DNA of 61,967 bases from Folioceros fuciformis (Eukaryota). The stretch covers positions 1-61,967 of the forward strand of contig JBNGIO010005907.1 of assembly GCA_049999805.1 (NCBI GenBank), read 5' to 3'. Shown one piece after another: positions 3,987-35,379 of this stretch. The notes beneath the pieces were generated by a model that saw nothing but the letters and a program-made list of their open reading frames with translations, did not search any database and was not told the DNA's origin. Each line of letters opens with the position of its first letter. The first letter of the stretch is position 1. Made by a program: the position numbers and the translations under genes.

Positions 3987-6353
3987 ATGGCCGCACAAAG
4001 TGCGCCCCTACCTATAGACGATGTATTGGCTTTCTTACTAAAGTTAGATGGCATCATTTTCACCACGCATTCACAAAAATTGGATAGAGCAGGTCTGATT
4101 GCGTGCCACTATGCAGCCGCGGAGGAGGCCCGCAAACTTATGACGCGACGTGATAGAGAATCGCAGTTCACCTATCGTTTGCTATACCCTGAGAAGCGAA
4201 GCGCTCCACTCTCTACTTTAACGCCGATGTTTCTGTGGGAGTCGTCGGAGGACATTTTACGAGTGGGTTCCACAAACTTAGATCAGGTGTTGTACAGCGG
4301 GCGGGTCCTGTATGGCAGGTTGTGTGTCAGGCCATTTATGACAGCAGGAGTTCACACAGTTTTGGAAGACATAAGTGGAAGTGGAGTCTTGCTAGTTATT
4401 GACAACGCTGTGTGCACAACTGAAAGCCAGAAATATGTCTGGAGCAAGTACCCGGACGGCTTGGCGGTGGCAATTAAAGAACCGTTGCTCACGAAGCTGT
4501 GGAGTGATGGGACAATTGGCCTGAAGGTCGCCAATCCAGCAGATATTGTGCCCCTGAAGGACAGGTTCTTATTTCTTCGAGCTATGCAAGCCATACGTTG
4601 TGGATTGGAAGGAATTTTGAACGACACCCATGATGCTCTCATTGTTCGGGGACGCATTCATTGGGATCTGCGAGAGTGGAGTAGGGCAGCTGTTTGCTTC
4701 ACGATTGGTGCCAAGCTCCTGGAGCGTTGTCAAGAGAAATTGCAGGAGGATTTGAACGGCACCACCGGGCTCCGCACGACTGATGTGCAACGCGCGCTGG
4801 CAATCAACGAAGTTAAGCTTGTCCAAATCTACGGTAAGATCAGTGACGCCTGTGTTCGGTTGGGACGTTATAAGAAAGTTTTGGACAATGCTGACAAGGC
4901 GTTGCAGCTCAGCCCTAACCATGTGGACAGCTTGCTGCGAAGGGCTAGAGCTTTGACGGGGATGCAGCGATACGACGAGGCGATTCGCTGTCTCAAGGTG
5001 GTGCAGGCAAGTTCCGTTAGACCGCTCTTCGAACCGATAGCACAAGCAGCTGCTCAACAGGCCCGTGAGGGCATCTACCAGTTGCAATGGGAAGACCTTC
5101 ACCGTGGAATCTACAATGCTTCAGAGTTTGAAACGTACGTTGGACCGATCGAGATTCGCATGGCCAGCCAAAACGGTGGAAGGGGAATGTTTGCAACTAG
5201 AGATGTAAGGCCCGGGGAGCTGCTCCTTGTGAGCAAACCCCTTACGCGAGGGAGTCCACGGGCGAGAGGGCCTAGATTGGAGTTCCTCTGTAACCAACGA
5301 GACCAGAATCCTGGACCACAAGAAATCCTCTGCCAGCTGAGTGAAGAGAAGTACAATGCCACGGTGCAAATGATAGCGAAGGCACAAGAATCTCCACAAT
5401 ATGCTACGCAGATGAAAAGTCTGCAACATGGCTTCGTGACCAAACAAGATTTACCTCCAATGTCTTTGTTCACAGAGGACTGGGATGATGATAAGTATGG
5501 AGATGTAAGTTCGCCAGAGAACCAAGAACTTCTTGAGATAAGCGTAGAAACAGCTCATGTCCGTGGCGCTGTACAGACCAACGCGTTTGTTGAGGATAGA
5601 GACAACGCTCCAGTATATGTATATGGATTGTCCTCGTTCTTCAACCATTCATGTTCTCCAAATTGCTTCCAATACTCACTCGGCGACTTTCAATTCATGA
5701 GCTCGTCCTGTTCAGTATCAGCTGGAGAGATGCTTACTATCAGCTACTTTTCTACTGTTACCAACTTCAATTACCGCATGCAAGCGAGCATGAAACACTT
5801 CGGCCAAAAGTGTGACTGTGTGAGGTGTAAGTTTGAAGAGCAGGCAATCACGGAGATTCCGGCCTTGGAAGCTCTGCTGACAAGATATTGCAAAGACTTC
5901 GCAGTCGGTTCTTTTGACGTACAGGATGTTCGATCTCCAGTGTACAGAAACAAGTGTTTCCAAGTCAGAACCGAGCTGGAGACAATTTTCAATAGCGAAG
6001 AATGTAAAGCATTCTCCGAGGAGTCGAAGGACTGGATTCGGGCTTCCTTTGCCCAGGTTTATGTGCTGCCACTGCTTGGCTTTCCCAGGCTCTTCGATAA
6101 GGACTGGCTGGATGAAGTTGTGCGACTTCTTACCTCAGTTATTCCCGGGAGCTTGAGTTTAATTGGCACTTTGGCCATTTTGCACGAGTTCCTTGTCTCG
6201 GTCGATAGAGAAGGCTGCGTGAAGCAACATTTCCTGCAAGCTTGTGCTAACCTCTATTTGCCGGTGGAGAGAGACTTTAACAATTTACTCAACTGGGCTC
6301 ATCAACGTGCTCCCATTGCTTTCGTCCTCAAACAGATGGTTACGTCTATTTGA
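3987..6353 (+). CDS. Intronless TPR + SET-domain protein lysine methyltransferase-like protein
   Basis: Open 854-codon frame, first ATG at 3987. TPR helices (ADKALQLSPNHVDSLLRRARAL), SET motifs GRGMFAT, FFNHSCSPNC and EMLTISY, and post-SET CDCVRC are present. Confidence 0.85.
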   Translation: MAAQSAPLPIDDVLAFLLKLDGIIFTTHSQKLDRAGLIACHYAAAEEARKLMTRRDRESQFTYRLLYPEKRSAPLSTLTPMFLWESSEDILRVGSTNLDQVLYSGRVLYGRLCVRPFMTAGVHTVLEDISGSGVLLVIDNAVCTTESQKYVWSKYPDGLAVAIKEPLLTKLWSDGTIGLKVANPADIVPLKDRFLFLRAMQAIRCGLEGILNDTHDALIVRGRIHWDLREWSRAAVCFTIGAKLLERCQEKLQEDLNGTTGLRTTDVQRALAINEVKLVQIYGKISDACVRLGRYKKVLDNADKALQLSPNHVDSLLRRARALTGMQRYDEAIRCLKVVQASSVRPLFEPIAQAAAQQAREGIYQLQWEDLHRGIYNASEFETYVGPIEIRMASQNGGRGMFATRDVRPGELLLVSKPLTRGSPRARGPRLEFLCNQRDQNPGPQEILCQLSEEKYNATVQMIAKAQESPQYATQMKSLQHGFVTKQDLPPMSLFTEDWDDDKYGDVSSPENQELLEISVETAHVRGAVQTNAFVEDRDNAPVYVYGLSSFFNHSCSPNCFQYSLGDFQFMSSSCSVSAGEMLTISYFSTVTNFNYRMQASMKHFGQKCDCVRCKFEEQAITEIPALEALLTRYCKDFAVGSFDVQDVRSPVYRNKCFQVRTELETIFNSEECKAFSEESKDWIRASFAQVYVLPLLGFPRLFDKDWLDEVVRLLTSVIPGSLSLIGTLAILHEFLVSVDREGCVKQHFLQACANLYLPVERDFNNLLNWAHQRAPIAFVLKQMVTSI

Positions 6354-8700: not shown

Positions 8701-11700
8701 ATGGTTACTCTGGGTATGATGGGTGTCAGCCGACTGCACGGACATGTAGCGTTGCCTCACCCGGCAGCCCAGCAGTCAGTATTAGTTGATGATGGACTCC
8801 TGTGCATCAACTGGAAAATTCCACAGCAGAAGCTCAAGCCTGGTGGGTTCGATGCTGAGTCTAGGATTACATCTTCTGGACTTTCGGCTCCAGGGGTCGG
8901 AGCTCGAGCTTACATGCTTGCTAGCAGCCGAAGAGATTCAGAGGTGGAAACCTGGAGAAGAATTTGTGTGGATGGTCAGAAGCTACATGTGGCTGTGGAA
9001 GCGTTGGTCCATCTGGTGCAGGCAGGGTCATTTGTTGATAACACATTGCTCTATCTTGTGCTCAAGAGATGCATTGAAGAGGAGGATTTGGTTCTTGGGA
9101 GGCGTGTACATGCTCTAACTGTGAGAAGTGGGAATGGGTCCGACTCGTTTCTCGTCAACCATTTGGTTCGTATGTATGCTGCCCATGCCAGGTTGGGGGA
9201 AGCCATGCAGGTTTTTGCCAACATGGCTGCGCCCAACAGCTTTGTGTGGGCTTCCATAATCAAGGCACATAGCGACCATGGGCAGCCTGCACAGGCTATT
9301 GAGCTATTTCGGGGGATGCGGCGGTCGGGGGTAAAGCCCAACGACAGTGTCTATGTGGCTGTGCTCAAGGCGTGTGCCTGTGCAGAAGATCTCGTTTCTG
9401 GGAAGGAGTTTCATGCTGACATTATCCGCAGTGGGGGGCAGACTAGTATGTTTGTTAGCACCTGCCTTGTGAAGATGTATGCACAGTGTGGAAGGTTAGA
9501 GGATGCACGTACAGTGTTCGACAAGATGCCCACAAAAGATGTTGTGGCGTGGACTACCATGATTGCTGGATATGCTCACGGACGGCTCGGTCAAGAAGCT
9601 CTAAATCTCTATGCGTCTATGCAAGCAGACGTCCTGAGTCCAGCCAATCAATTGACATTCATAGCCCTTCTAAAGGCATGTGCTATAATTGGAGACATTC
9701 ATCAGGGGAAACAGCTTCATTCAGTAATCCAGAAGAGGGGATTGGAAACTGAGATCGTGGTTGGCAACTGCTTGGTGGACATGTATTCCAAGTGTGGCAG
9801 CTTAGAGGATGCTCGCAAATTGTTCGACAGCATGTTGAGAAGAGATGTGGTGACATGGAATACCATGATCACAGGATATGCTCAGCACGGGCTTGGTCAG
9901 CACGCCCTTGATCTCTATGCAGATAGGAAACAGGAATGCGTCGATGTTGCCAATCATTTCACATACTCTGGCCTCCTAAATGCCTGTGCCAGTGTGAGGG
10001 CATTACCTCAAGGGGAAGAGATTCATTCCCTCATTGAAGAAAGGGGCCTGGAATCTGATTTGGTTGTTGGAAATTGCCTGGTTGACATGTACGCCAAGTG
10101 TGGGAGCCTAGACGATGCTCAGATGGCGTTTGACATGTTGCCGATGAAAGATGTTGTTACTTGGAATACCATGATTGGAGGATATAGTCAGCATGGGCTC
10201 GGTCAAGAAGCTCTTGATCTGTATGCTAGAATGCAGGATGAGGGCTTGACTGAAGCCAATGATGTCACTTTTTCATTCCTCTTTAACGCATGTGCCAGTG
10301 TTGGTGCTTTGCATAAAGGGAAGCAGATCCACATGCTGGTTCAACAAAGGGAATTGGAAGTTGACTTGGTTATGGGCAACTGCCTCATAGACATGTATTC
10401 AAAGTGCGGTAGTCTAGAGGATGCGAGGTTAGTCTTCCACAGTCTGCTTGCAAAAGATGTGGTAACGTGGACTTCCATGATTACAGGATATGCTCAGCAC
10501 GGATTGAGTGATGAGGCCCTCAGTCTATATCAAGATATGCAACGAGCGGGCATTACACTAGCCAATCAGGTGACGTTTGTGTCCCTCCTGAAAGCTTGTG
10601 CCAGTGTGGGAGCTCTGCATCAGGGAAAGCACCTTCATACTCTAATTCGGGAAAGGGGACTTGAAGCTGATCTTGATGTTGGCAACTGCTTGGTGGACAT
10701 GTATTCAAAATGTGGGGCCATCCAGGATGCTCGCCTCATCTTTGAAGAGATGTCCACAAGGGATGTGGTAACATGGACTTCGATGATCGGGGGATATGCC
10801 ATGCATGGACTTGGACAGGAAGCCCTTGATCTTTATGCAATCATGCAACAGCAACGCCTCATTGAGCCCAATCGTGTTACATTTTTGTGCCTTCTCAAAG
10901 CTTGCACCATGGTAGGAGCCGCACATCAAGGGAAGCAGATTCACGGGGTGATTAGGGAAAGGGGGCTGGAAGCTGACGCAACCATTAACAGTTGCTTGGT
11001 GGACATGTATGCCAAATGCGGGAGCTTAGAGAGTGCTCGCAGCTTGTTTGACAGGTTGCCCGCAAGAGATGTGGTGACATGGAATGCTTTACTTAATGGC
11101 TATGCTGCACACGGTGATGACCGAAAGGCAATTCATTGTTTCGAAGAAATGGAGCAGGACGGAGTGAAACCGAATGCTGCCACTTTCATTTCGCTTCTGG
11201 TGGCATGCAGTCACAAAGGCCTTGTGAGTGAGGGTCAGGCTTATTTCAAGCAGATGGTTGAAGATCATGGCCTAGTTCCCACCGACTGTCATCACAACTG
11301 CATGGTAGATCTTTTTGGTCGATCAGGCAATCTGGACCTGGCTGAAGTCCTCTTGCAAACCACCAGATTCGAGAACGAGGTGGTGGGTTGGACATCGTTG
11401 CTGAGTTCCTGCAAATGCCACGGGGACGTGGACCGAGCCCAGCGATGTTTCAATCGCCTTGTCACTTTGGAACCCGAGAACGCGTCCCCTTACATGCTCT
11501 TGGGTAATTTATATGCCAAATCTGGCAGGTGGGAGGATGTAAAGCATCTTGAAGGGCTGAGGAAGGCTGCTGGCGCTTGGAAGAAGCCCGCAAGGGCCTC
11601 TATTGAATTGAAGAACAAAGTACATGAGTTCGTTGTAGGAGAAGAAAGGGCTGACATCTCATCAAAGTTGGAGAGCCTAAATATAAGATTAAAAAAAGAG

Positions 11701-11985
11701 GGAGGACATATCCCGCAGAACGACCTTGTTCTCAAAGCTGTGTCAGACAGAGAAAAGGAGGATGCATTATGTGGACATGCAGAGAAACTGGCCCTGGCTT
11801 ATGGTCTTTTGAACACCTCGGATGGCACCAGTTTACTAATCACGAAGAATCTTCGAATGTGCAATGACTGCCACAGTAGCACCAAGATTTTGTCACACCT
11901 TGAGAATCGAGAAATTGTAGTAAGGGATGCTCACCGTGTGCACCATTTTCTGAAGGGCTCGTGTTCATGTGGGGACCGGCCATGA
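8701..11985 (+). CDS. PLS-class PPR protein with DYW:KP deaminase domain (C-terminus DRP); candidate U-to-C organellar editing factor
   Basis: P-L-S triplet array, E1/E2, then WKKPARASIE, HAEKLA, MCNDCH and CSCGDRP*. Intronless, with a ~90-aa N-terminal extension. Confidence 0.93.
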   Translation: MVTLGMMGVSRLHGHVALPHPAAQQSVLVDDGLLCINWKIPQQKLKPGGFDAESRITSSGLSAPGVGARAYMLASSRRDSEVETWRRICVDGQKLHVAVEALVHLVQAGSFVDNTLLYLVLKRCIEEEDLVLGRRVHALTVRSGNGSDSFLVNHLVRMYAAHARLGEAMQVFANMAAPNSFVWASIIKAHSDHGQPAQAIELFRGMRRSGVKPNDSVYVAVLKACACAEDLVSGKEFHADIIRSGGQTSMFVSTCLVKMYAQCGRLEDARTVFDKMPTKDVVAWTTMIAGYAHGRLGQEALNLYASMQADVLSPANQLTFIALLKACAIIGDIHQGKQLHSVIQKRGLETEIVVGNCLVDMYSKCGSLEDARKLFDSMLRRDVVTWNTMITGYAQHGLGQHALDLYADRKQECVDVANHFTYSGLLNACASVRALPQGEEIHSLIEERGLESDLVVGNCLVDMYAKCGSLDDAQMAFDMLPMKDVVTWNTMIGGYSQHGLGQEALDLYARMQDEGLTEANDVTFSFLFNACASVGALHKGKQIHMLVQQRELEVDLVMGNCLIDMYSKCGSLEDARLVFHSLLAKDVVTWTSMITGYAQHGLSDEALSLYQDMQRAGITLANQVTFVSLLKACASVGALHQGKHLHTLIRERGLEADLDVGNCLVDMYSKCGAIQDARLIFEEMSTRDVVTWTSMIGGYAMHGLGQEALDLYAIMQQQRLIEPNRVTFLCLLKACTMVGAAHQGKQIHGVIRERGLEADATINSCLVDMYAKCGSLESARSLFDRLPARDVVTWNALLNGYAAHGDDRKAIHCFEEMEQDGVKPNAATFISLLVACSHKGLVSEGQAYFKQMVEDHGLVPTDCHHNCMVDLFGRSGNLDLAEVLLQTTRFENEVVGWTSLLSSCKCHGDVDRAQRCFNRLVTLEPENASPYMLLGNLYAKSGRWEDVKHLEGLRKAAGAWKKPARASIELKNKVHEFVVGEERADISSKLESLNIRLKKEGGHIPQNDLVLKAVSDREKEDALCGHAEKLALAYGLLNTSDGTSLLITKNLRMCNDCHSSTKILSHLENREIVVRDAHRVHHFLKGSCSCGDRP

Positions 11986-12023
11986 CCAACAGGCGGGGAA
12001 GAGAAATGGGATTGGAACTCCAG

Positions 12024-13907
12024 TCAGATTCTCTGCAGCTGTTTATTCAAGCTTCTGAGCAAGCTGTACAGAGGTGCTTCTTCTTGTGGTCTGTGGTGCC
12101 TGTTGTCTCCGACAAAAAAAGTGCGCACCTCCTGTCGGAGCTCTATCCAACTCTGCGCAGGCTGCTTCCATGCCCCTGCTCTTCGTCTTAGCTCATCTAC
12201 GTCCTTGGCGTGTTCCCACATGCCAGCTTCAGAGTAGATGTTGCACATCATCAAATAGGCTGACGCTCGCTCTGGCTCTAACGTAACAGAACTCTCAAAG
12301 GCACGCTTGCCTAGCTCAACATTGCTATGCTTCCGGCAGGCTCCTAGCAGAGACAACCATACACGTAGGTCAGGCTGCATTGGCATCTCTGAAATGATGC
12401 TTTCTGCCTTACTGAAGAGTCCAGCGCGGGCAACAAGATCAATCACACAGGCATAGTGCTCAAGCTCGGGAGAAATGCCATGATCTATGGCCATTGTTTC
12501 AAAATACTGCAGACCTCTGGCCACCAAGCCAGCATTGCAGCACGCAGAGAGAATTGCCAAAAATGTGACCCTGTTTGGTTTCACCCCGGTCTCAGTCATG
12601 TTCGCAAAGCACTGCACACTAGAGTGCACATCTCCTTGCCTGGCATAACCGGCAATTAAAGCAGTGCATGAAACCACATCCGGCTGCGTCAACGAGTCAA
12701 ACACCTTGTGAGCATCCACCATGCTTCCACATTTGCCAAAAGTGTGAATCAGACTATTGGCCACAACCAGATTGGAAGCTAATCCACTTTCCAGAATTTC
12801 TTTCTGAACGTGCTTACAGACGTCCAAGGCTCCTGTGCAGCTGCATGCTTGTAGTGCATACAAGACCGTAGCCTCATCTATCCCCATGCCCTCTTCCCGC
12901 ATTTTCTTGTAGATGTGCAAGGCCTTTTCCCAGTGCCCCAGCCCCACATATGCTACCATCATGACTCGCCATAACACCACGTCTCGTTTGGACAATCCGT
13001 CAAACACTTTCTGTGCATCCTCTATGCTTCCGCACTTCGCGTACACGCTGACCAACGTGCTTCCCACAAACACATCCGATCCATAACCCAGCTCAACAGC
13101 TTGTGCATGCAATTCCTTCCCCTTGTGCAGCGATTCCACTTTGACGTCCTGCCTGTGTACACGTGCACCCACCTCCCTCTCTGCCTGGCTCCCACATGCT
13201 TGGAGAACACTCACAAAGGTTCGATCATCTGGGCGCACACCACTTCTTCGCATATGCCCGTACAGCTGCAAGGCCAAATCTGATCTCTCCTGCTGAGCAT
13301 ATGCTCCAAGTATGGCGTTCCACGACACAACATCTCTCGTCGACAATGTGTCGAACACCTTTTGCGCGTCGCTGATGCTCCCACACTTGGCATACATACT
13401 CACCAGAGTGTTACCCACAAACACATCCGACTCAAGCCCTCGCCTTCGAGCGTCATCATGAACACGCCTCCCCTCCTCCAGATCTCCTAGCCTGCTGCAT
13501 GCCTTCAGCACGCTGACAAACGTGTACTTGTTGGCGAGCTCACCCTCCAGTTGCATCTGCTGATAGCACACGAGAGCCTGCCGGCATAGCCCCGCATTGC
13601 TGTACCCTGAGATGATGGCCGTCCAAGCAAACACTGACCGGTGGGACAGTCTGTAAAACACACACAGCCCATCTCCTAGGCCGCCGCAGGTGACCAGCGT
13701 GGTCACGGCAAGGTTGCCCAGAAGCTTGTTGGATTCCAGCCCATGTTTTGCTAGATGGGAGTGTACTTGTCTGGCCTCCGCCAGATCCTTCTTCTTCATG
13801 CATTCCTGCAGCAGACTTCTGTATAGGTGGACCGCAGGCACACTGCCCTCCAGATCTGCCTGCGCCAGGGCAGACAGCGCATGGTTGAGCCCCAAAAGCT
13901 CAACCAT
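12024..13907 (-). CDS. PLS-class PPR protein, E/E+ type (truncated DYW, no deaminase site), with one long-L motif
   Basis: PLS array ending WKQPAQSWIE...TFFVGD...LQRI*, with no HxE or CxxC. L-motif insertion QAEREVGARVHRQDVKVESL. Confidence 0.9.
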   Translation of the reverse strand: MVELLGLNHALSALAQADLEGSVPAVHLYRSLLQECMKKKDLAEARQVHSHLAKHGLESNKLLGNLAVTTLVTCGGLGDGLCVFYRLSHRSVFAWTAIISGYSNAGLCRQALVCYQQMQLEGELANKYTFVSVLKACSRLGDLEEGRRVHDDARRRGLESDVFVGNTLVSMYAKCGSISDAQKVFDTLSTRDVVSWNAILGAYAQQERSDLALQLYGHMRRSGVRPDDRTFVSVLQACGSQAEREVGARVHRQDVKVESLHKGKELHAQAVELGYGSDVFVGSTLVSVYAKCGSIEDAQKVFDGLSKRDVVLWRVMMVAYVGLGHWEKALHIYKKMREEGMGIDEATVLYALQACSCTGALDVCKHVQKEILESGLASNLVVANSLIHTFGKCGSMVDAHKVFDSLTQPDVVSCTALIAGYARQGDVHSSVQCFANMTETGVKPNRVTFLAILSACCNAGLVARGLQYFETMAIDHGISPELEHYACVIDLVARAGLFSKAESIISEMPMQPDLRVWLSLLGACRKHSNVELGKRAFESSVTLEPERASAYLMMCNIYSEAGMWEHAKDVDELRRRAGAWKQPAQSWIELRQEVRTFFVGDNRHHRPQEEAPLYSLLRSLNKQLQRI

Positions 13908-14115
13908 TTGACCATCAGCTCATCCCCCAACAATCTGCGGAGTAAATCCGGACTTGCCGTTCTTTCCTGCTTGCTTGCTTTACGCTTGCACCATCAACTG
14001 CATGCTTTGAACTCATGTTGAGTTCCAGGATTCTCCATCAAAATCCAAAGCTGACTCTAGGTTGAGCATCAGTATCCCTACCTCCATGTGGGCATGAAAG
14101 GTAACCTTGTATCCC

Positions 14116-16761
14116 ATGGTGGTACTAATGTCCATGGAGGTGTATGCCACCTGCACATCTCAGGTTGATTCTGTCAGGGCCAGTGAAGTTGAATATCTGT
14201 GCAAGGAAGGGCAGTTGGACAAGGCCTTGGGTATCCTGTTTGGTTTAAAACAGCAGGGCACAGTGCACATGTACAAGAGCCTCTTACAGGCGTGCATGAA
14301 GAAGAAGTCCCTTGCCAAGGCTAGGCGGGTACATGACCATTTGGCCAAGCATGGGTTGGAGTCGGACAGATTATTGGGGAACCTTGTCGTCACCACGCTT
14401 GTGAACTGTGGAAACCTTACAGACGGACTCAGTCTGTTCCGGAGGCTGTCGCATCGCACAGTTTTCTCGTGGACTGCCATCATCACAGGGTACAGTAATG
14501 CTGGACACGAACGGAAGGCCCTGTCATGCTACCACCTAATGCAGCAAGAAGGTGTGCATCCCGACAAGTATACTATTGTCAGCTTGCTCAAGGCATGTAG
14601 TCGGTTAGGAGACCTGATAGAGGGCAGGCGTGTCCATGGCGATGCTGTCAGATACGGGATGGAGTCGGACGTTTTCGTGGGTAACACTTTGGTTATTATG
14701 TATGCGAAGTGCGGGGGCATCGTGGATGCACAAAAGGTCTTTGATGGCTTGTCTGAGCGTGATGTGGTGTCATGGAATGTGATGCTTGCAGCATACGCTC
14801 AGCAGGGCCAAGGAGAGAAGGCACTGAGAATTTATGAGCAAATGCAGAAGAATGGGATTAGACCAGATGATCGGACATTTGTCGGTGCCTTGCAAGCCTG
14901 TGGCACCCTTGCAGAGAGGGAGAAAAGTGCAATGGTGCATGGGTACAACGTCAAGGTGGAGTCACTGCGGAAAGGAAAGGAACTACATACTGAAGTTGCT
15001 CGGTTGGGCTTCGTCTCCGATATGTTTGTTGCTACTACGTTGGTTAGTATGTATGCGAAGTGTGGGAGCATCGTGGATGCACAACAGGTGTTTGACACGT
15101 TGTCCCAGCGTAGTGTTGTGACATGGAATGCAATGCTTGCAGCATATGCCCACCAGGCTGAAGGGGAAAAGACCCTGAAAATCTATCAGCAAATGCGAAT
15201 GGAAGGCGTGCGGCCAGATGCTTGGACCTTTGTCAGCGTCCTCCAAGCATGTGGCAGCCTTGCAGAAAAACAGAACAGCGTTGCTGTGCAAGGTGCCGAA
15301 GTGGCCTTGCTGCATGTGGTGGAAGAGATACATGCAGAGGTTGTTCGGCTGGGTTACGAAAAGGATTTGTTTGTTGCCAATGCCCTGATATCAACGTTTG
15401 CAAAGTGCGGGAGCATCAAGCATTCACGAGGAGTGTTTGACGATATGCCTGTTCGTGACTTAGTGTCATGGAATTCTATCGTCGGGGCATATGCTCAGAA
15501 CGAGGAAGCAGAGAATGCCCTGCAGGTTTATGCGCAGATGCAAGCGCAAGGTTTCAAGCCGAATGCTCGTACCTTAGCCAGTGCTATCCAAGCATGTGGG
15601 ACCCTCGCAGAGAATGAGGAAGGTGCCCTGGTACATGGTCAAACTCTTAAAGTGGTATCCCTGCAAAAAGGGGAGGAACTACATCGTGAAGCTGCTAAGC
15701 TGGGCTGTGGGTCAGATGTGTTTGTGGGTAGCAGTTTGGTGAGCATGTATGCCAAATGTGGCAGCTTTAAGGATGCAGAAAATGTGTTTCACAGTTTGTC
15801 CCAGCGTGATGTTGTTGCTTGGAATGCATTTCTTGCGGCATGTGCTCGTGAAGAGCAGGGAGAGATGGCTTTGCACATCTATTTCAAAATGCAGCAGGAT
15901 GGCATGATAGTGGATCACGCTACGTTTGTTTCCGTTCTAGGAGCTTGTAGCAGCATAGGAGACCTAGATGCCTGCAGGCATACTCACCAGAGTATTCTGA
16001 GACGTGGGATGGAGTGCAACCTTTTTGTGGCAACTAGCTTAATTCATGCTTACAGCAGATGTGGAAGTATGAGGAATGCTCAAAACGTGTTCGACTCGTT
16101 ACCGCATTCTGACGTTGTGTCTTGCAATGCACTACTGGCTGGGTATGCTCGACAAGGAGACTCTGATGCGTGTATACGATGCTACAACGACATGAGTATA
16201 AAAGGCCAAAAACCAAATAGGGTGACATTTCTGGCTCTTCTTTCTGCATGCAGTCATGCTGGCAGGGTGGACAGAGGTCTAGAGTACTTCGAGAGCATGA
16301 CCAGGGACCATGGCATTGCTGCGGAACTGGCGCACTTTGTGTGTGTAATTGACCTTGTTGGGCGTGCAGGACTCTTCCGCCAAGCAGAAGACCTTGTCTT
16401 GAATATGCCTATGCAGCCTAATTTTTCTATTTGGCTGTGTTTATTAGGTGCCTGTCAAAAGCATGGCAATGTGACACTGGGAAGACGTGCCTTCGATCAT
16501 GCCGTGGCTCTAGATCCAGAACAAGGTGCAGCATATGTCCTCATGTTTAATATCTATGCTGATACTGGGATGTGGGACCATGCCAAGGAAATAGACGAAA
16601 GGAGGAGGGAAGCAGGTGCTCGGAAGCAGCCTGGCAAAAGCTGGATAAAGCATGGGCAGGACGTGCACACATTTCTAGCCCAGGATTGCAGGTATCTCCA
16701 AGACGATCTGCACAGCTTCCTCGTCAGGTTGAACTCACAGCTGACCGGAGCAGGTTATTGA
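14116..16761 (+). CDS. PLS-class PPR protein, E/E+ type (PG-box, truncated DYW), with three long-L motifs
   Basis: PLS array ending KQPGKSWIK...HTFLAQD...TGAGY*. First in-frame ATG is at 14116. Confidence 0.9.
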   Translation: MVVLMSMEVYATCTSQVDSVRASEVEYLCKEGQLDKALGILFGLKQQGTVHMYKSLLQACMKKKSLAKARRVHDHLAKHGLESDRLLGNLVVTTLVNCGNLTDGLSLFRRLSHRTVFSWTAIITGYSNAGHERKALSCYHLMQQEGVHPDKYTIVSLLKACSRLGDLIEGRRVHGDAVRYGMESDVFVGNTLVIMYAKCGGIVDAQKVFDGLSERDVVSWNVMLAAYAQQGQGEKALRIYEQMQKNGIRPDDRTFVGALQACGTLAEREKSAMVHGYNVKVESLRKGKELHTEVARLGFVSDMFVATTLVSMYAKCGSIVDAQQVFDTLSQRSVVTWNAMLAAYAHQAEGEKTLKIYQQMRMEGVRPDAWTFVSVLQACGSLAEKQNSVAVQGAEVALLHVVEEIHAEVVRLGYEKDLFVANALISTFAKCGSIKHSRGVFDDMPVRDLVSWNSIVGAYAQNEEAENALQVYAQMQAQGFKPNARTLASAIQACGTLAENEEGALVHGQTLKVVSLQKGEELHREAAKLGCGSDVFVGSSLVSMYAKCGSFKDAENVFHSLSQRDVVAWNAFLAACAREEQGEMALHIYFKMQQDGMIVDHATFVSVLGACSSIGDLDACRHTHQSILRRGMECNLFVATSLIHAYSRCGSMRNAQNVFDSLPHSDVVSCNALLAGYARQGDSDACIRCYNDMSIKGQKPNRVTFLALLSACSHAGRVDRGLEYFESMTRDHGIAAELAHFVCVIDLVGRAGLFRQAEDLVLNMPMQPNFSIWLCLLGACQKHGNVTLGRRAFDHAVALDPEQGAAYVLMFNIYADTGMWDHAKEIDERRREAGARKQPGKSWIKHGQDVHTFLAQDCRYLQDDLHSFLVRLNSQLTGAGY

Positions 16762-16872
16762 TCGACCTGTCCTGGGAACACATAAACTGTGCCACAAACC
16801 ATGGACCACGGAATTTCTGCTAGCAGTGACAGAATCATGTGGGTTTGCTCAAACGTACTTGAATTGCGCTTG

Positions 16873-19800
16873 TCAACTATGATCACCACATGAACAAAAT
16901 CCATCAACAAAATGGTGAACACGGTGTGCATCTCTAACTATGATCTCTCGCTTCTCAATCTTGGACATCATCTTCGTACCAGTATGGCAGTCATTGCACA
17001 TACGTAGATTTTTTGTCACGAGCAAAGTGGTGCCATCTGCAGTGTTCAGCAGACCATAGGCCAAAGCTAATTTCTCTGCATGACCACACAATGCATCTTC
17101 CTTGCCTTGGTCTGGTACAGGCTTCAGCACCCGCTCTGTATGTGGAAACTGCCTGCCTCCCTCTCCCAACTGCAAATTGGCACTCCGTAATTGCGAGGAA
17201 ATATCATCCCTCTCTTCTCCCACTGTAAACATGTGGACTTGACTGCCTACCTCGATCCATGCCCTTGCAGGCTTCTTGCAAGCGCCTGCAGACCTTCTCA
17301 AGCTTTCTATTCTCTCAACATCTGTCCACCTGCCAGCATTTGCATAAATGGATCCAAGAAGTACATACGCAGATGCATTCTGCCGATCTAACTCAATAAT
17401 CTGGTCAAAGCAGCGGTTCCCACGCTCAATGTCCCCATGGCTCTTACACGCACTCAATAGAGATGTCCAACCCACAATGTCCTTGTCACATTCCATGGTT
17501 GCCAGCAGATTTTCGGCTTCATCCAGGCGGCCTGATCTACCAAGAAGGTCAACCATACAATTGTAGTGATACCCAGTTGGTTGAATGCCGTGGTCTTCCT
17601 CCATCATCCTAAAAACCTGCTGACCGTCATTCACCAAACCCTGATGACTGCACGCCATCAAAAGACAACTAAAAGTGGTGGCATTGGGCTGAACTCCCTG
17701 ATGTTGCATCTGGTGGAAATAATGCATTGCCATTTGACTATCATTGTGCAGACCGTAGCCATTTACCAAAGCCGTCCACGTGACAACATCTTTCGTGGGC
17801 AAACTGTCGAACACTCTCTGAGCATCTGGCAGACTGCCGCATTTTGCATACATGTCCACCAAGCTGTTCCCAAGAACCAGATCAGTTTCTACATTTCTCT
17901 CCTGGATCTGGTTATGGATCTGCTTACCCTGATCCAGAGCTCCAACGCTGGCGCAGGCTTTCAGAAGGCATAGAAATGTGACATTATCGCCTGGAGATAT
18001 GCCCTCCTGCAGCATAGCCGCATACAGATTAAGGGCGTCGTGACCAAGCCCATACTCTGCATAAGCTGCGATCAGGGCAGTCCAGACACTCACATCCCTT
18101 GTCGGCAACCTGTCAAATACTCTGCGGGCATCCTCTACGCTGCCACATTTAGCATACATATCCACCAGGCAGTTCCCGAGCACCACATCTGCTGCCAGTC
18201 CTCTTTCCTGAATCTGGCAATGAAGCTGCTTCCCCTCATGTAAAGCTCCAATGCTGCCACAGGCATTCAAGAGGCACACAAATGTAACCCGATTGGCAGG
18301 AGTAACGCCCTCCTGTTGCATGGTCGCATACAGCGCCAGGGCTTCTTGTCCTAGTCCATGCCTGGCATATCCGGCAATCATGGCAGTCCAAGTCACCACA
18401 TCTTTTGTGGCCAGTCTGTCAAACTGTAGACGAGCATCAATTAGACTACCGCATTTTGCATACATGTCTACCAGGCTGTTGCTAACAACCACATCATGCT
18501 CTAGACCTCTCTCCTTGATCTGTGAATGAAGCTCCTTGCCTTGATGCAAAGCTCCAATGCTGGCACATGCCTTGAGAAGGCAGGCGAATGTGACACGGTC
18601 AGCTGCAATATTGCCCTCCAGCTGCATACTTTCATAAAGGCTTAGAGCTTGTTGACCGAGACCCTGATGAGCGTATCCGGTAAGCATGGCATTCCAGGTT
18701 ATTACATCTTTAATGGGCAGTCTGTCAAACACCGCACGAGCATCCTCTAAGCTGCCACACTTTGCATACATGTCAACCAGGCTGTTGGCAACTACCAAGT
18801 CACCTTCAAGTCCTTTTTTCTCTACCAGAGAATGGAGCTGCTTGCCCTGGTGTAAAGCTCCGAGGCTTGCACATGCTTTCAGGAGGCATGTCAGTGTAAC
18901 ATGATCAGGCTGAACGTCCTCATCTTCCATAATTGAGTACAGCGTGAGAGCTTCTTGGGCAAGGCCATGTTGAGCATAGCCTGCGAGCATGACATTCCAA
19001 GTAACCACATTTCTATCGCACAGATGGTCGAATACTCTGCGAGCATCTTCTAAACTCCCACATTTCACATACATATCCACCAAGCTGCTACCGAGAAATA
19101 GGTCAACATCCACAGCAGTACCCAGAACATCAGCGTGAACCTGCTTGCCAGAAGCTAAATCTGACGCGTTAGCGCATGCCTTAAGAGCCGCCACAAAGGC
19201 ATAGTTATTCGGAGTTGTGCGCAGCTGTCGCATCTGTTGGTAGTAGGCAACAGCTGTTGCAGGCTGTTGAAGCTCAGCATGTGCCAAAATAATAGAAGCC
19301 CACATGAAGGAGTCAGGTGCATCAAGCTTCGAAAACACTTGCGTTGCTTCTTTCAACTGTCCATGGGAGGAATACATGCGAATAAGGTGGTTAGCCAGGA
19401 ATGTGCTCGAGTTGTAGCCATTTTCAGAAGTCAAGGCATGAAGCTGCTTGCCCGCAGCCAAATCACTCTCCGCACTGCATCCTTTCAGGACCAGATAATG
19501 CAGACATACGGGAATATAGTACCCTCTCTGCACCAAGCCGTCAAGTGCTTGGACTGCCTCATTCACATGTCCCAGCTGACACAGTTTACCCCATATTCCA
19601 CCCTCAAGGACTTCTTCATACCTGCAACAAGGTTTCTGGATTGTAAGATCAGCAAGAGCATCCTCACTTAAATTTCACTGCGAAGGAAGGAGGAGTAAGA
19701 AGTAACTTAACCTAGCGCTGCCAGGCTGCTGAGATGCACCACCTCTCGGATCTGGCCGGGCTTTCTCCTGCAGCCATGCATCAACCCACAAGGCATCCCT

Positions 19801-19908
19801 GGCTCCGGTGTGCAGGAAAAGGTGTCTCTGCAATGTGGCAACAATTAACTGCCCCACCCAGGTCTGCTTCGGGGGCCACCGAATGTTGCCAACCAGATGG
19901 CAAGGCAT
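16873..19908 (-). CDS. PLS-class PPR protein with DYW:KP domain (C-terminus DHS); predicted exons 19908-19712 and 19621-16873
   Basis: KKPARAWIE, HAEKLA, MCNDCH, CSCGDHS*. The upstream in-frame ORF joins through a 90-nt phase-2 GT-AG intron (19622-19711) that contains the in-frame TGA. Confidence 0.9.
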
Positions 19909-20499
19909 GAGTCCTGACACGGAACACCGGCTTGCACCTGTTGACCCACAAGTATGCAATATCTGGGAGCAGATCCCCGACAGTCAGCCCTGCAAGCAAC
20001 TGTTGTATTGAGGACTGCAGAGCTTCTTCCCTTCTCGAGAGAATGCGACAAAGAAAAGCAGAATTGCTTCAAAGAATCAACCTCCTAGAAAGGAAACATG
20101 CAACCACTCCCCCACCTAGATCAATTATGGACTTGTCTTGCTCCGCTGCAGCTGGCAGCGATAATCGCTGCCTGTTCCATCCCTCCCAATGGCTTGGAAA
20201 ACTGGGTCTGATCCCGAACGGACTGGGCACAACGAAATCGTGGCCCCATATCTTCATGCGTGCAGACCCGCGATGGGGATCCCGCACAAACTAGGCATCG
20301 ACACACAGGCTTGCTACAGGCCTGCTCGACGTGTCCGAACAAGAGAATCGAAGACTAGCCAGTTCGTTTCTCCAGAGTGATCACAGAATTTGCTTCCTAC
20401 TTGGACTGTGAAAGACGGCGCCTGAAAGCAACATGGACTGCTCTGGTGTGGGGAGAGTCTCTTCATTTGGGAACGAGAGGGGAACCTGAAGCGCAGGTG

Positions 20500-23400
20500 A
20501 TGGCGGAGCCGGCACTACTGGGCACGCTCCCGCTGCCCTCTTCGGTAGTCCCGGATACCACGGAAGCCGTGATCAATCAAGACCGGATTCAATCAAGCTT
20601 CTCTCGTTCCGACCTCTGGCACAGAACTTCCAAGGAGACAGTGTGGCTGAACAACTCTGGCAAGCCTCTGTCCCAGCTGATCAGCTTTGATGCTCAATTC
20701 TCATGCACCACCAGAATCCTGAAACAGGAGAGTGGCCTTTGTAAGGATACATGGTATCAAGAACGTTCACTGGTTGAGTCCCTACAGAAGCGTTGTGAGG
20801 AGGGAGAGCTAGATGAGGCGGTGGAAGCATTGAATGTACTGGTGGATCGAGGATGCCGTGTCAGCGTCGCTCTCTTCTATCGGATTCTGAAGAGGTGTAC
20901 TACACACAAGGACTTGCTTCTCGGTACTCGGGTCCATGCTCTTGCTGTGAGAAATGGATACGAGTCAAACTCATTCTTGGCTAACCATCTCATTTGTATG
21001 TATACCTCCCTTGAGAGATTGGAGGAGGCCATGCGTGTCTTCTCCAAGGTTCCCGCACCAAATGTGTACATGTGGACGTCCATCATCCTGGCGCATGTCA
21101 GACATGGATTTCCCAAAGAGGCCACGAGCCTGTACCGACAGATGCGGGATTCAAGTGCCAGGTCTGACAATCATATATTTGTGGCAGTACTCAAAGCGTG
21201 TGCAGCCGCTGGAGATTTGGTTTTTGGCGAGGAAGTTCATGCTGATATTTTGAGGAGTGGTGTGAAGCCTGATGCCTTTGTCGGCAGCAGCCTAGTGGAC
21301 ATGTACGCAAAATGTGGGAGCTTGGATAATGCTGCCCGAGTGTTTGAGGGCCTGCCCACCAAGAGTGTGGGTACTTGGACTGCCCTGATTGCGGGCTATG
21401 TCCAGCTTGGGCTCGGTAAACAAGCTCTCGATCTTTATGCCAGGATGCAACTGGATGGGTTGGCTTTGGCCAATCGTGTTACATTCGTGTGTCTTCTGCA
21501 AGCATGTGGCAACATGGGAGCCCTTCACCAGGGCAAGCAACTGCACGCACAGATTCAAGAAGGAGCAGTGGCAGTTGACCTCATGATAGGCAATTGCTTG
21601 GTGGACATGTATTCAAAGTGCGGGAGCTTGGATGATGCTCGCAGGGTCTTTGACGGATTGCTCAGCAAAGACGTGGTTACTTGGAATTCCATGATTGCAG
21701 GATACACACACCAAGGGCTTGGCCATGAAGCCCTTGCTTTGTATAGAAGTATGCAGCAGGAGGGATTGAGTTCAGCTACACCTGTGACGTTTGTTTGCCT
21801 CCTTCAAGCATGTGCCTATGTGGGGGAGCTACGTCAGGGCCAGCATATTCATGCGCAGATTCGTGAAAAGAATCTGGATACTGACATTCTTATTGGCAGG
21901 GGCTTGGTGAACATGTACTCCAAGTGTGGAAGCTTGGACGATGCTCGTAAGGTGTTTGACAGCTTACCCAGAAGAGACGTGGTGGCATGGACTTGTATGA
22001 TCACAGGGTGTATACAACAGGGGCTGAGTCATGAAGCAATTGCCCTGTACGACAGTATGCTCCAGGAAGGGATCACACAAGAGGACACATCTATTTTGTA
22101 TCGTGTGCTCAAGATGTGCTCTGAACAGAAGGATCTCTCTCTTGGCAGGAAGGTACATGCTCTAGTTATAAAAAGTGGGCAAGAGTCGAACACATTCTTG
22201 GCCAACCACATAATTGCCATGTATGCTTCTCATGGCAAATTGGAGGATGCGATGCAGGTTTTCACCAAAGCAAGTGTCGCGGATGCTCACATGTGGACGA
22301 CAATCATTTGGGCACACGCAAGGAATGGACAGCCCACTCAGGCAATCAGCCTTTATGAACAGATGCGAGATTGGCATGTGGAGCCAGACAATCATACATT
22401 CGTAGCAGTCCTCTGGGCATGTGCTGCCGCAGAGGATCTGGCTTCAGGACAGGAAGTGCATTCTGATGTTTTAAAGAGTGTTGCTGACGTTGATACGTTC
22501 GTTGGCAACAGCCTGGTGAGCATGTACGCAAAATGTGGCAGCTTGGAGGATGCTCGCAGAGTGTTCGACAGTCTATGCATAAAGGATGTGGTTACATGGA
22601 ATGCCATGTTTGCAGGATACACGAAGCACGGGCTGGGTCATGAGGCCCTGGCTCTGAATGAAAGTATGCAGCAACAGGGGGATACCGTGCCCACGCATGC
22701 AACCTTTGTTTGCCTCCTTAAAGCTTGTGCCGCCGTTGGAGCCTTGAGTCAGGGTAAGGAGCTTCATAGACAGATTCAGGGAAGAGGCCTGGAGGCTGAT
22801 GTGCCCATCGGCAGCAGCCTAGTGGACATGTACGCGAAATGTGGGAGCTTGGAAGATGCACAGACAGTTTTCCAACACATGCCCAGCCGTAATGTGGTGA
22901 CGTGGGGTGCGCTGCTCAATGGCTACGCCGAACACGGCTACGGTGATGAGGCAATCCATTGTTTCAAGGAGATGCTTCAGCAAGGTGTGGAGCCTGATGA
23001 GACCATCTTCATCAGCCTCCTCGTAGCCTGCAGCCATGCAGGATTGGTGCATGAGGGACTGCACTACTTCAGGGTTATGGTGGACGAGCACGGCATTGCG
23101 CCGAGCCAATATCACTACAACTGCATTGTCGATCTTCTGGGGCGCTCAGGATTCCTAGACGAGGCAGAAGAAATCCTTCTCCAAACTGCCCCTTCTGATA
23201 GTCTGGTGGTCGGGTGGACATCCTTATTGAGCGCCTGCAAAAGCCAGGGCCACGCAGAGCTTGGACAGCGATGCTTCGAGCGACTGGTAGCAATGGAGCC
23301 TGCAAATGCCAGTGCATACGTTCTCCTGGGCAACATGTATGCGCATGCTGGCAGGTGGAAGGATGTCGAAGAAACAGAACGCTTGCGAAATCAAGCAGGT

Positions 23401-23811
23401 GCGTGGAAGAAGCCTGCCAGGGCATGCATTGAAGTGAACAGGAGGGTGCACGAATTCACAGTAGGAGAGGACAGGGCTGACATCTCCTCGAAGGTGAGGG
23501 GAATGAACAAAAGGCTGAAAGAGGAAGGCGGCCATGTGCCACAAACTGAGTTGGTCCTGAAGGCAGTGTCCTTGCTGGAGAAGGAAGAGGCCCTGTGTGG
23601 ACACGCCGAAAAACTGGCTCTGGCATACGGTCTCCTGTATTCTCCCGATGGCTCATCCTTGCTTGTGACTAAAAATCTTCGCATGTGCAACGACTGCCAT
23701 AGCAGCACCAAGGTGATGTCTCGGCTGGAGAAGCGAGAGATCATCGTCAGGGACGCGCAGAGAGTGCACCGATTCCGGGATGGCTCTTGCTCGTGTGGCG
23801 ACAGGCATTGA
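20500..23811 (+). CDS. PLS-class PPR protein with DYW:KP domain (C-terminus DRH) and an internally duplicated array
   Basis: WKKPARACIE, HAEKLA, MCNDCH, CSCGDRH*. First ATG is at 20500; an upstream exon is possible. Confidence 0.93.
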   Translation: MAEPALLGTLPLPSSVVPDTTEAVINQDRIQSSFSRSDLWHRTSKETVWLNNSGKPLSQLISFDAQFSCTTRILKQESGLCKDTWYQERSLVESLQKRCEEGELDEAVEALNVLVDRGCRVSVALFYRILKRCTTHKDLLLGTRVHALAVRNGYESNSFLANHLICMYTSLERLEEAMRVFSKVPAPNVYMWTSIILAHVRHGFPKEATSLYRQMRDSSARSDNHIFVAVLKACAAAGDLVFGEEVHADILRSGVKPDAFVGSSLVDMYAKCGSLDNAARVFEGLPTKSVGTWTALIAGYVQLGLGKQALDLYARMQLDGLALANRVTFVCLLQACGNMGALHQGKQLHAQIQEGAVAVDLMIGNCLVDMYSKCGSLDDARRVFDGLLSKDVVTWNSMIAGYTHQGLGHEALALYRSMQQEGLSSATPVTFVCLLQACAYVGELRQGQHIHAQIREKNLDTDILIGRGLVNMYSKCGSLDDARKVFDSLPRRDVVAWTCMITGCIQQGLSHEAIALYDSMLQEGITQEDTSILYRVLKMCSEQKDLSLGRKVHALVIKSGQESNTFLANHIIAMYASHGKLEDAMQVFTKASVADAHMWTTIIWAHARNGQPTQAISLYEQMRDWHVEPDNHTFVAVLWACAAAEDLASGQEVHSDVLKSVADVDTFVGNSLVSMYAKCGSLEDARRVFDSLCIKDVVTWNAMFAGYTKHGLGHEALALNESMQQQGDTVPTHATFVCLLKACAAVGALSQGKELHRQIQGRGLEADVPIGSSLVDMYAKCGSLEDAQTVFQHMPSRNVVTWGALLNGYAEHGYGDEAIHCFKEMLQQGVEPDETIFISLLVACSHAGLVHEGLHYFRVMVDEHGIAPSQYHYNCIVDLLGRSGFLDEAEEILLQTAPSDSLVVGWTSLLSACKSQGHAELGQRCFERLVAMEPANASAYVLLGNMYAHAGRWKDVEETERLRNQAGAWKKPARACIEVNRRVHEFTVGEDRADISSKVRGMNKRLKEEGGHVPQTELVLKAVSLLEKEEALCGHAEKLALAYGLLYSPDGSSLLVTKNLRMCNDCHSSTKVMSRLEKREIIVRDAQRVHRFRDGSCSCGDRH

Positions 23812-25827: not shown

Positions 25828-27249
25828 TCAGCTTGTCCTAGGAGGAACACGCACGAAGCTGAGTAGGGAGGAGAGATTGCCGAGGCCATGGAGGCTGGCC
25901 AGGTCATCCTCTACATCCGGAAACCCTAACCCTTGCTCCGCCATAGCCGAGCAGCGGAGCACGCTCGCCTGGCCGTCCACGATCTCCAGCACCTGCGGCA
26001 GGGCGTGGAGGACGCCGCGAGACATCCCGACATCGATCCTCCACACGCGCCCGCCGCACTGGCTGTTCACCCCGGCAATTTGCGGGGTATGCCCGACGAC
26101 GAGGCCACGGCAGTCCAGAGCGTCGAGCGCGGCCGAGAGCACGGCGCAGGCAGTGATCTTGTCCTCGGGTCGCTCGTAGATCTCCCGGGAGTAGAGCCTA
26201 CTCCACACCACGCTATCGAAACCCCGCGTGGCTAGAAACGGCATCTGCGCCTGCAGCCCGGCGGAGGATCTCGCCGCGCGCATCCAGTCCGATACCTCCT
26301 TGTTGATCCTCTCCAGCCCGTACTGAACGTGGTGCGGCAAAACCCCGCCATGTGCAAACAGCCAGTCGTTCACCTTCAGCACGACCCCATGCCGGGACAG
26401 CTCCTGCGCCAGGAACCCCCCCGGCGCGAACAGCACCGCTCGCGCGGCCTGCCCCTTCTGCAGCTTGAGTGGGTTCCAGAGCGAAGCCGCCCAGTCCCCG
26501 GGCGCCGTCCGCCGGTCCTCCGCCTCCCGAGCCGCCTGCGAGTCGAGGTGCCACGCTGCGAAGGCGGCGGTCCAATCCCCGCCGTGCTCGTCCTGGCAAT
26601 AGTCGGCGAAGCGCTGGCATTCCTGGAAGCCGGCCGGAGCGGCGTCCCGGAACTCCCCGGCCACGTTCATGGTTTCGTGGTTCCCATTAATCTGCAACAC
26701 AACGCCCCCGGCTGCCCGCGCCTGCTGCCGCAACCGGGCCAGCAAAGACAGGATTGCAATCTCGTCCCCGCCCCTATCCAGCACATCGCCAACCTGCACC
26801 AGGACGGTGGATCCCCCCGTCCAGTCGCTCCGCCCATCCGCGCTCAGCACTCCCGCCAGCTGCAACGCCAGCCTCGCCCTCTCCAGGTCTCCATGCACGT
26901 CGCCAACGGCCACAATCCGCCTCCCCGGGGCTGACACCACGGTGCATGGCGTGGGAGCCGGGCCGGTGTCGTCTTGGTCCAGCACAATGGGCTCGGGCAT
27001 CGGCACCTCACCAAGAGCCAGCGTAAGACACCGCTGCTGCGCCCAGCACCCGGAAATCACCACTGTCCCGATGACCAGCGCCCTGCGGGTGCTGGGGCAC
27101 CAGCCCGAATGCGCCTGCGTCAGCCTCCTCCTGCCCCATCCCGCGCTGGGTGGATGCCCCCGGCCCAAGAGCATAGCCGATATGCAGGAGGACGCAAGAA
27201 CCGTCTCCACCGTGCAGGGCTGCCACCAAGCAGCAGCGCCCACAACCAT
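25828..27249 (-). CDS. SLP1: Shewanella-like protein phosphatase 1 (PPP-like metallophosphoesterase), intronless
   Basis: Motifs GDVHG, GDVLDRG, GNHE, VVGHT, RIDVGMS and MPFLATRGFDSVVWSRLYSRE. A transit-peptide-like N-terminus starts at ATG 27249. Confidence 0.9.
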   Translation of the reverse strand: MVVGAAAWWQPCTVETVLASSCISAMLLGRGHPPSAGWGRRRLTQAHSGWCPSTRRALVIGTVVISGCWAQQRCLTLALGEVPMPEPIVLDQDDTGPAPTPCTVVSAPGRRIVAVGDVHGDLERARLALQLAGVLSADGRSDWTGGSTVLVQVGDVLDRGGDEIAILSLLARLRQQARAAGGVVLQINGNHETMNVAGEFRDAAPAGFQECQRFADYCQDEHGGDWTAAFAAWHLDSQAAREAEDRRTAPGDWAASLWNPLKLQKGQAARAVLFAPGGFLAQELSRHGVVLKVNDWLFAHGGVLPHHVQYGLERINKEVSDWMRAARSSAGLQAQMPFLATRGFDSVVWSRLYSREIYERPEDKITACAVLSAALDALDCRGLVVGHTPQIAGVNSQCGGRVWRIDVGMSRGVLHALPQVLEIVDGQASVLRCSAMAEQGLGFPDVEDDLASLHGLGNLSSLLSFVRVPPRTS

Positions 27250-27495
27250 CCTGCTCACATGAGCAGCAGCGTCCCCATGGCAATCAATGTAATGGACCCA
27301 GGAATGGACGAGAAGGAAGAATTCGCACCAGCACCCAAAATTCCGAACGTCAGCGGACCAAACGCAAGAAGGACTGAAAAGAAAAAAAAAGAATGAAAGA
27401 AGAGCATCTGTCATGGTTCGTGTTGGGTCAGAGCCATACAACGCGGTTGTGGTAGGACCATGTGTTCATGCGGGGTAAAGAAAGTTTGGCGGTAG

Positions 27496-35279: not shown

Positions 35280-35379
35280 NNNNNNNNNNNNNNNNNNNNN
35301 NNNNNNNNNNNNNNNNNNNNNNNNNNNNNNNNNNNNNNNNNNNNNNNNNNNNNNNNNNNNNNNNNNNNNNNNNNNNNNN
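35280..35379. other. Assembly gap (N run)
   Basis: Run of N. Other gaps lie at ~1059-1068, 1333-1432 and 61372-61381. Confidence 0.99.

Follow-up and report, generated by a model that had tools for sequence, protein, structure and literature searches.

Genes for catalytic and for non-catalytic RNA-editing factors may lie end to end; are they then partners or only neighbours? The question is raised by a cluster of five pentatricopeptide repeat (PPR) genes on contig JBNGIO010005907.1 of Folioceros fuciformis (assembly GCA_049999805.1), whose 61,967 nucleotides are the whole stretch of DNA analysed here, hereafter the window. The genes lie within 8701-23811 and are labelled G1 to G5 from left to right; all coordinates are window positions. 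G1, G4 and G5 carry a deaminase domain of the DYW:KP type, and G2 and G3 are truncated proteins of the E+ type. We consider it likely that the five are independent editing-factor genes in a cluster that is old and ordinary, and whose tight spacing makes their 3′ ends overlap. As a cluster it is what PPR family expansion ordinarily produces, and in that respect the offer of the window is modest. The lead that comes from it concerns the truncated genes, which belong to a hornwort E+ family that appears to be kin to KP proteins and not to canonical DYW proteins.

To our knowledge, no natural U-to-C editing factor has been tied to a site. In the accessible parts of two studies (PMC9478123, PMC11845758), U-to-C activity is demonstrated only for consensus-designed KP proteins. 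If it were true that E+ proteins use KP domains in trans, how many sites each deaminase serves and how U-to-C tools are designed would both need rethinking. The block is small and syntenic, and its three KP genes, natural and intact, and its two E+ genes are convenient candidates for knock-out and for heterologous assays. The cluster is laid out as follows.

8701-11985, plus strand: G1, ATG-to-stop open reading frame of 1094 aa (amino acids); PLS-E1/E2 with a complete DYW:KP domain, ends DRP
11986-12023, no strand: spacer G1/G2, 38 bp, stop-to-stop, convergent
12024-13907, minus strand: G2, ATG-to-stop open reading frame of 627 aa; PLS-E1-E2, E+ type
13908-14115, no strand: spacer G2/G3, 208 bp, head-to-head
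14116-16761, plus strand: G3, ATG-to-stop open reading frame of 881 aa; PLS-E1-E2, E+ type
16762-16872, no strand: spacer G3/G4, 111 bp, stop-to-stop, convergent
16873-19621, minus strand: main exon of G4; PLS-DYW:KP, ends DHS; the ATG-bounded open reading frame at 16873-19377 has 834 aa
19622-19711, minus strand: putative intron of G4 (model), 90 nt, GT..AG, containing an in-frame stop
19712-19908, minus strand: putative first exon of G4 (model), 66 residues including a shared codon
20500-23811, plus strand: G5, ATG-to-stop open reading frame of 1103 aa; PLS-DYW:KP, ends DRH

The preliminary description of this locus had placed five RNA-editing PPR genes here, with convergent gaps of 38 bp and 111 bp and the two E+ genes head-to-head, and had divided them into three DYW:KP genes and two E+-type truncations. 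The listing of open reading frames gives exactly these positions and strands, and the gaps and the head-to-head orientation can be read from its coordinates. The division into classes agrees with a Pfam search of the five proteins, in which PPR repeats and an E motif were found in all five and DYW_deaminase (PF14432) was matched by G1, G4 and G5 only (E ~1e-34). The strands of the five genes alternate (+ - + - +), with no tandem neighbours and every adjacent pair either tail-to-tail or head-to-head. The 208-bp spacer between the heads of G2 and G3 is a probable shared promoter region.

DYW:KP domains are distinguished by KP instead of PG and by Ala or Cys instead of Ser after the His, and the hornwort subgroups by a C-terminal DRH or GRP, a missing xHP and a domain of 132-133 residues, according to the available portions of PMC11845758 and PMC9478123. 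In G1, G4 and G5 the KP pair replaces PG (boxes KKPARASIE, KKPARAWIE and KKPARACIE, respectively), HAE stands for HSE (GHAEK in all three), and the zinc-site motif CNDCH (CxDCH) is present in each. Their C-terminal triplets are not DYW, being DRP in G1, DHS in G4 and DRH in G5, and in all three the domain extends over 133 residues from the KP pair (134 from the first K). The individual PF14432 matches had E-values of 8.9e-35 (G1), 3e-34 (G4) and 6.3e-34 (G5). The C-terminus of G1 aligned to residues 456-610 of the solved synthetic PPR-DYW protein 9kfx (E 8.5e-43), and a gap of four residues in G1 marks the place of the missing xHP. The DYW domains could also be aligned to the solved structure 7o4e. 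In designed KP proteins Lys88 is essential for U-to-C activity (PMC11845758, accessible part); the lysine of TKNLRMC is residue 88 from the KP pair in G1 by our own count, on a numbering that we infer, and the motif also occurs in G4 and G5. By these features, which agree with the published sequence marks, G1, G4 and G5 are members of the DYW:KP class, and the direction of their editing is presumably U-to-C.

The RNA-binding part of the three catalytic genes is long. PPR and PPR_2 matches reached E-values of 1e-91 to 1e-114 and fell into 6-9 Pfam stretches per gene, and the E_motif was significant in G1 (1.7e-13), G4 (1.6e-16) and G5 (1.7e-12). A regular-expression parse gave about 7-8 S-motif anchors per gene with a period of 101-102 aa (about 8 at 102 aa in G1); anchor counts alone were taken from this parse, which mis-registers the 36-residue P motifs. 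The domain marks are the same as in hornwort DYW:KP proteins of the DRH subgroup (Gerke et al. 2020 and Gutmann et al. 2020, as cited in the accessible part of PMC9478123). In contrast to the synthetic editors KP1-KP6 described in the same part of that paper, G1, G4 and G5 are natural genes, known here from sequence alone. G5 differs from both the DRH-subgroup proteins and KP1-KP6 in that its N-terminal PPR module occurs twice: residues 100-480 match residues 506-887 with 46% identity over 383 aa, which looks like two PPR arrays fused head to tail.

The preliminary description had given G4 as an open reading frame at 16873-19377. Its assignment as a DYW:KP gene holds, but its start does not, as the ATG at 19377 falls within the first S motif and the frame remains open further upstream. 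A splice model joining an exon at 19908-19712 to the main exon across a 90-nt GT..AG intron (19711-19622) gives an uninterrupted protein of 981 aa, the two exons together measuring 2946 nt with a single terminal stop. This first exon and the 90-nt intron probably exist, and the first exon possibly encodes a targeting peptide.

The two remaining genes stop early. G2 ends 47 and G3 45 residues after a PG-like box (KQPAQSWIE and KQPGKSWIK, respectively), and neither has a catalytic centre. No match to PF14432 was found in G2 or G3 even at E-values up to 10, and none to the Pfam E+ model PF20430 at E-values up to 10. PF20430 misses G1 too and, among the searched proteins, was listed only for canonical DYW proteins. 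Because PF20430 does not match, the E+ label of G2 and G3 rests on alignment: G2 aligned to residues 425-517 of 9kfx only, and the alignments of both genes stop at 517, just before the catalytic part. The E_motif was matched in both (E ~1e-12). G2 is short, with 627 aa and 3-4 S anchors in the regular-expression parse, and its best full-length database matches have 45-47% identity, the window proteins themselves being absent from the database. The L motifs of G3 carry a loop insertion of ~16 residues. On this alignment evidence, G2 and G3 are E+-type members of a truncated hornwort family.

This family as such is already known, because an E+ subgroup 'exclusively enriched in hornworts' is in print; the accessible part of that source (PMC13386178) neither assigns the subgroup a function nor relates it to KP, and contains no analysis of its gene neighbourhoods. 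G2 and G3 have the same architecture as that subgroup, so far as it is described there, and fall inside a large truncated clade from public assemblies. With the angiosperm E+ proteins (CRR4 with DYW1; SLO2 or CLB19 with DYW2 and NUWA) they share the PLS array, E1/E2 and a DYW domain of which only the start is kept, and their truncation point is near where the solved DYW1 fragment starts to align. They differ from the angiosperm proteins in not matching PF20430, in lacking a known donor, in having neighbouring KP genes that are unlike DYW1-like donors, and in belonging to a separate hornwort-type clade allied to KP and not to DYW:PG.

The placement of this clade was obtained from a set of 244 proteins, comprising the five window proteins and 239 database matches: 86 canonical DYW (PG), 56 KP-type, 74 truncated and 28 without an alignable anchor. 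The 28 anchorless proteins were dropped before the first tree, as were proteins with fewer than 280 residues before the box and truncated proteins with tails of <30 or >115 residues. The resulting FastTree phylogeny had 199 rows, with 57 truncated (55 from the database plus G2 and G3), 56 KP and 86 PG proteins. The truncated tails after the box mostly measured 40-65 residues, clustering at about 45-50, and there was a conserved consensus around the box. Fifty-one of the 57 truncated rows formed one clade with a support of 99. The deepest supported split (99) separated the 56 KP rows, 53 truncated rows and four PG-labelled rows from 82 PG and four truncated rows.

A second tree was calculated with IQ-TREE from 63 rows and 314 columns, containing the five window genes, 16 truncated proteins, 17 of the 53 database KP proteins, 20 of the 86 PG proteins and five added PG proteins. 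The 16 truncated rows were drawn at random from those among the 55 database rows that passed a filter on the residues just before the box, and the 17 KP and 20 PG rows were likewise random. The KP-side split was recovered with 100/99, the 18 truncated rows formed one clade (100/100), and G2 and G3 were sisters (100/98). Three PG-labelled proteins on the KP side of this tree (P0175, P0176 and P0210) have KP-style boxes. An E2 motif ending in AGAWKKP is common to KP and truncated proteins, and the stub of the truncated family, PGQSWIE...VGD..H, looks canonical.

A lineage effect has to be considered here, as the PG rows are mostly from plants of other groups. The control is a single protein (P0292), a canonical DYW protein with a canonical E2 ending, which grouped with PG despite sharing a contig with the truncated P0268, the two being tied by equal longest-contig size only. 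The trees and the E2 ending thus offer a lead, namely that the truncated family may be allied to the KP lineage and not to canonical DYW:PG. We found no earlier mention of a kinship between E+ and KP proteins in a literature search that did not cover Gerke 2020 or Gutmann 2020 in full. By the same comparisons, a role in trans U-to-C editing is possible for the truncated family as a whole.

The loop insertion seen in G3 is a trait of the truncated family, in which the spacer from AC to GKxxH measures 24 instead of 8 residues. By regular expression it was detected in 123 of 209 L-like motifs of truncated proteins (51 of 57 proteins), against 6/191 motifs in KP proteins (5/56 proteins) and 13/169 in canonical DYW proteins (13/86 proteins). 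The expression missed the long loops of G2 itself, which are visible by eye.

The history of the cluster can be followed in part from these trees. G2 and G3 were each other's closest relatives with both FastTree and IQ-TREE; as sisters they therefore arose by local head-to-head duplication, and because they are sister paralogues, chance does not explain the run of five PLS genes. G1, G4 and G5 fell in one KP subclade and were not clearly sisters. In a 30-row KP tree, G1 belonged to a 16-row set (99/96) that excluded G4, and G5 grouped with three database proteins (96/95); G1 and G4 as sisters were not rejected by the approximately unbiased (AU) test (p 0.20). The mirror DNA matches within the cluster have 68% identity, which is family-level similarity only. 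Judged from these comparisons, the mirror quartet G1-G4 may be one duplicated KP/E+ pair or the outcome of a more complex history.

Contigs of three related organisms (B, C and E) cover the cluster region at ~91-93% identity. The G1/G2 junction is bridged in organism B (X5 record 20, 11859-13176, with 90 other letters and 20 gaps), the heads of G2 and G3 are bridged by three related organisms (X14 record 4, X5 record 21 and X6 record 26), and those of G4 and G5 by a relative's contig (X5 record 22). As its junctions are bridged in close relatives, the cluster was therefore inherited among them as a block. Synteny at ~91-93% identity is expected anyway, and little can be concluded from it on whether selection maintains the arrangement. 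In run X2, from the same organism, 100%-identical contigs cover parts of all five genes. Two of them run across the tail-to-tail junctions at 100%, namely record 11 (11859-12824, G1/G2) and record 13 (15925-16947, G3/G4); X2 is only guessed to be RNA and also covers intergenic bins.

Linkage elsewhere was judged among the database proteins, whose co-location was inferred from equal longest-contig sizes alone, which give neither order nor strand. The E+ proteins P0052 and P0087 share a contig of 12324 with the KP protein P0145, the E+ protein P0106 shares one of 26447 with the KP protein P0159, and P0268 and P0292 (canonical DYW:PG) share one of 21032. The tally is two E+/KP, one E+/PG and one E+/E+. 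Chance equality of sizes among the few contigs >12 kb is unlikely by our own estimate. Hornworts hold 1,583-2,308 PPR genes (PMC13386178, section 6, from the accessible part), so that PPR neighbours of any class are frequent, and because P0268 shares a contig with P0292, E+ genes adjoin other PPR classes too.

The account that we prefer, that of independent genes in an old cluster, starts from what was observed, that is, the gene structures, domain types, family placement and synteny in close relatives. The five would be nuclear genes for PLS-class PPR RNA-editing factors, presumably targeted to organelles. Judged by the DRH-type KP endings and the E+ family, they belong most likely to a hornwort genome. 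G1, G4 and G5 would each be self-contained, with a long PPR array reading the RNA upstream of one target and the attached DYW:KP domain, with its zinc site (HAE...CxDCH) and active-site lysine in TKNLRMC, performing the pyrimidine exchange, presumably from U to C. Members of the truncated family, G2 and G3 included, stop ~45-50 residues into the DYW domain, so they would have no catalysis of their own; either another protein of the cell would supply their deaminase, or they would serve simply to bind RNA. The neighbourhood would reflect old local duplication and conserved synteny, not functional pairing, with each neighbour acting independently, and the convergent 3′ ends would very probably overlap simply as a result of tight gene packing.

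Several observations weigh against this account. At the deepest split the truncated family falls with the KP proteins (100/99 with IQ-TREE, 99 with FastTree) and has the KP-type AGAWKKP, and such a kinship, read from the sequences, would fit a functional tie between both families. E+ and KP proteins occur together on two other contigs, and E+/KP linkage therefore recurs. No contig shared by two KP proteins was seen among the 56 KP rows. At 38 and 111 bp the convergent genes are very closely spaced, and organism B retains the G1/G2 junction.

These points can be read as a neighbour module, in which G2 and G3 recognise the site and borrow in trans the DYW:KP domain of their convergent neighbours G1 and G4, and in which linkage serves co-inheritance or co-regulation of a trans U-to-C system. 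Two convergent KP/E+ pairs with such short spacers, an E+ family allied to the KP lineage with an E2 ending in common, and E+ and KP relatives together on two further contigs are all consistent with it, and recruitment of a DYW domain in trans is known for angiosperm E+ proteins (PMC7076377 and PMC11121751, accessible parts). However, in the DYW1-like trans donors the PPRs are very few, the PG box is absent and E2 is degenerate (PMC7076377, in the part available), whereas G1, G4 and G5 have 7-8 S-motif anchors, a significant E_motif and a KP box, so that each would be expected to have its own target. Furthermore, the E+ stub keeps the first 45-47 DYW residues, which a full domain from a neighbour would duplicate and not complement. 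As G2 and G3 are duplicates, and G1 and G4 as sisters are not rejected, a single event may account for both pairs. G5 lacks an E+ partner, a DYW:PG gene is also found next to an E+ relative, and a trans-acting protein in a eukaryote needs no genetic linkage. We therefore regard the neighbour module as highly improbable. The preliminary description had proposed linked specificity-plus-catalyst modules of KP and E+ genes; this proposal found no supporting test, and it is opposed by the full-length KP genes, unlike DYW1-like donors, by the duplicate origin of G2 and G3 and by the E+ relative that accompanies DYW:PG. A broader version, in which the truncated E+ family is an offshoot of KP that recognises sites for U-to-C editing and receives DYW:KP in trans, convergent linkage keeping the partners co-inherited or co-regulated via their overlapping 3′ ends, is in our estimate very unlikely.

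Regulation through the junctions themselves was also considered. Given the geometry, overlap of the convergent 3′ untranslated regions (UTRs) is almost unavoidable: with 38 and 111 bp between the stops, an ordinary 3′ UTR would enter the neighbour's coding sequence. The overlap might thus form natural antisense pairs that regulate one or both genes via transcriptional interference or small RNAs, a reading consistent with the 100%-identical X2 contigs that span both junctions (records 11 and 13) and with the G1/G2 junction kept in organism B (X5 record 20). However, as X2 is only guessed to be RNA and covers intergenic bins, the bridging contigs may be DNA. They carry no information on strand or transcript ends, and an overlap in a compact genome need not be regulatory. 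Antisense regulation is thus rather unlikely. It is scarcely credible, in turn, that G2 and G3 are non-functional and in decay, left over from DYW or DYW:KP genes whose 3′ ends were lost when a neighbour was inserted. They have no catalytic centre, G2 is short (627 aa, 3-4 S anchors), and the neighbour's stop codon is just 38 or 111 bp off. Nevertheless, their frames are open over 627 and 881 codons, the truncation point and stub motif are common to a clade of 51 proteins, which points to one old truncation kept under selection, and the family-specific L-motif insertion is found in 51 of 57 proteins.

The other long frames in the window are not PPR genes, and all four runs of N (assembly gaps) lie outside the PPR cluster. 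These features are listed below.

1059-1068, no strand: N run, 10 bases
1333-1432, no strand: N run, 100 bases
3987-6353, plus strand: SET/TPR frame, 788 aa, upstream of the cluster
25828-27414, minus strand: metallophosphatase-like frame, 528 aa, weak match, downstream of the cluster in a stretch of 64% G+C
35280-35379, no strand: N run, 100 bases
51431-55146, plus strand: Copia-type retroelement frames, with a 957-aa open reading frame containing gag-pre-integrase, integrase core, SH3-like and RVT_2 domains
61372-61381, no strand: N run, 10 bases

The 957-aa Copia-type open reading frame ends within the reverse transcriptase (RT) domain.

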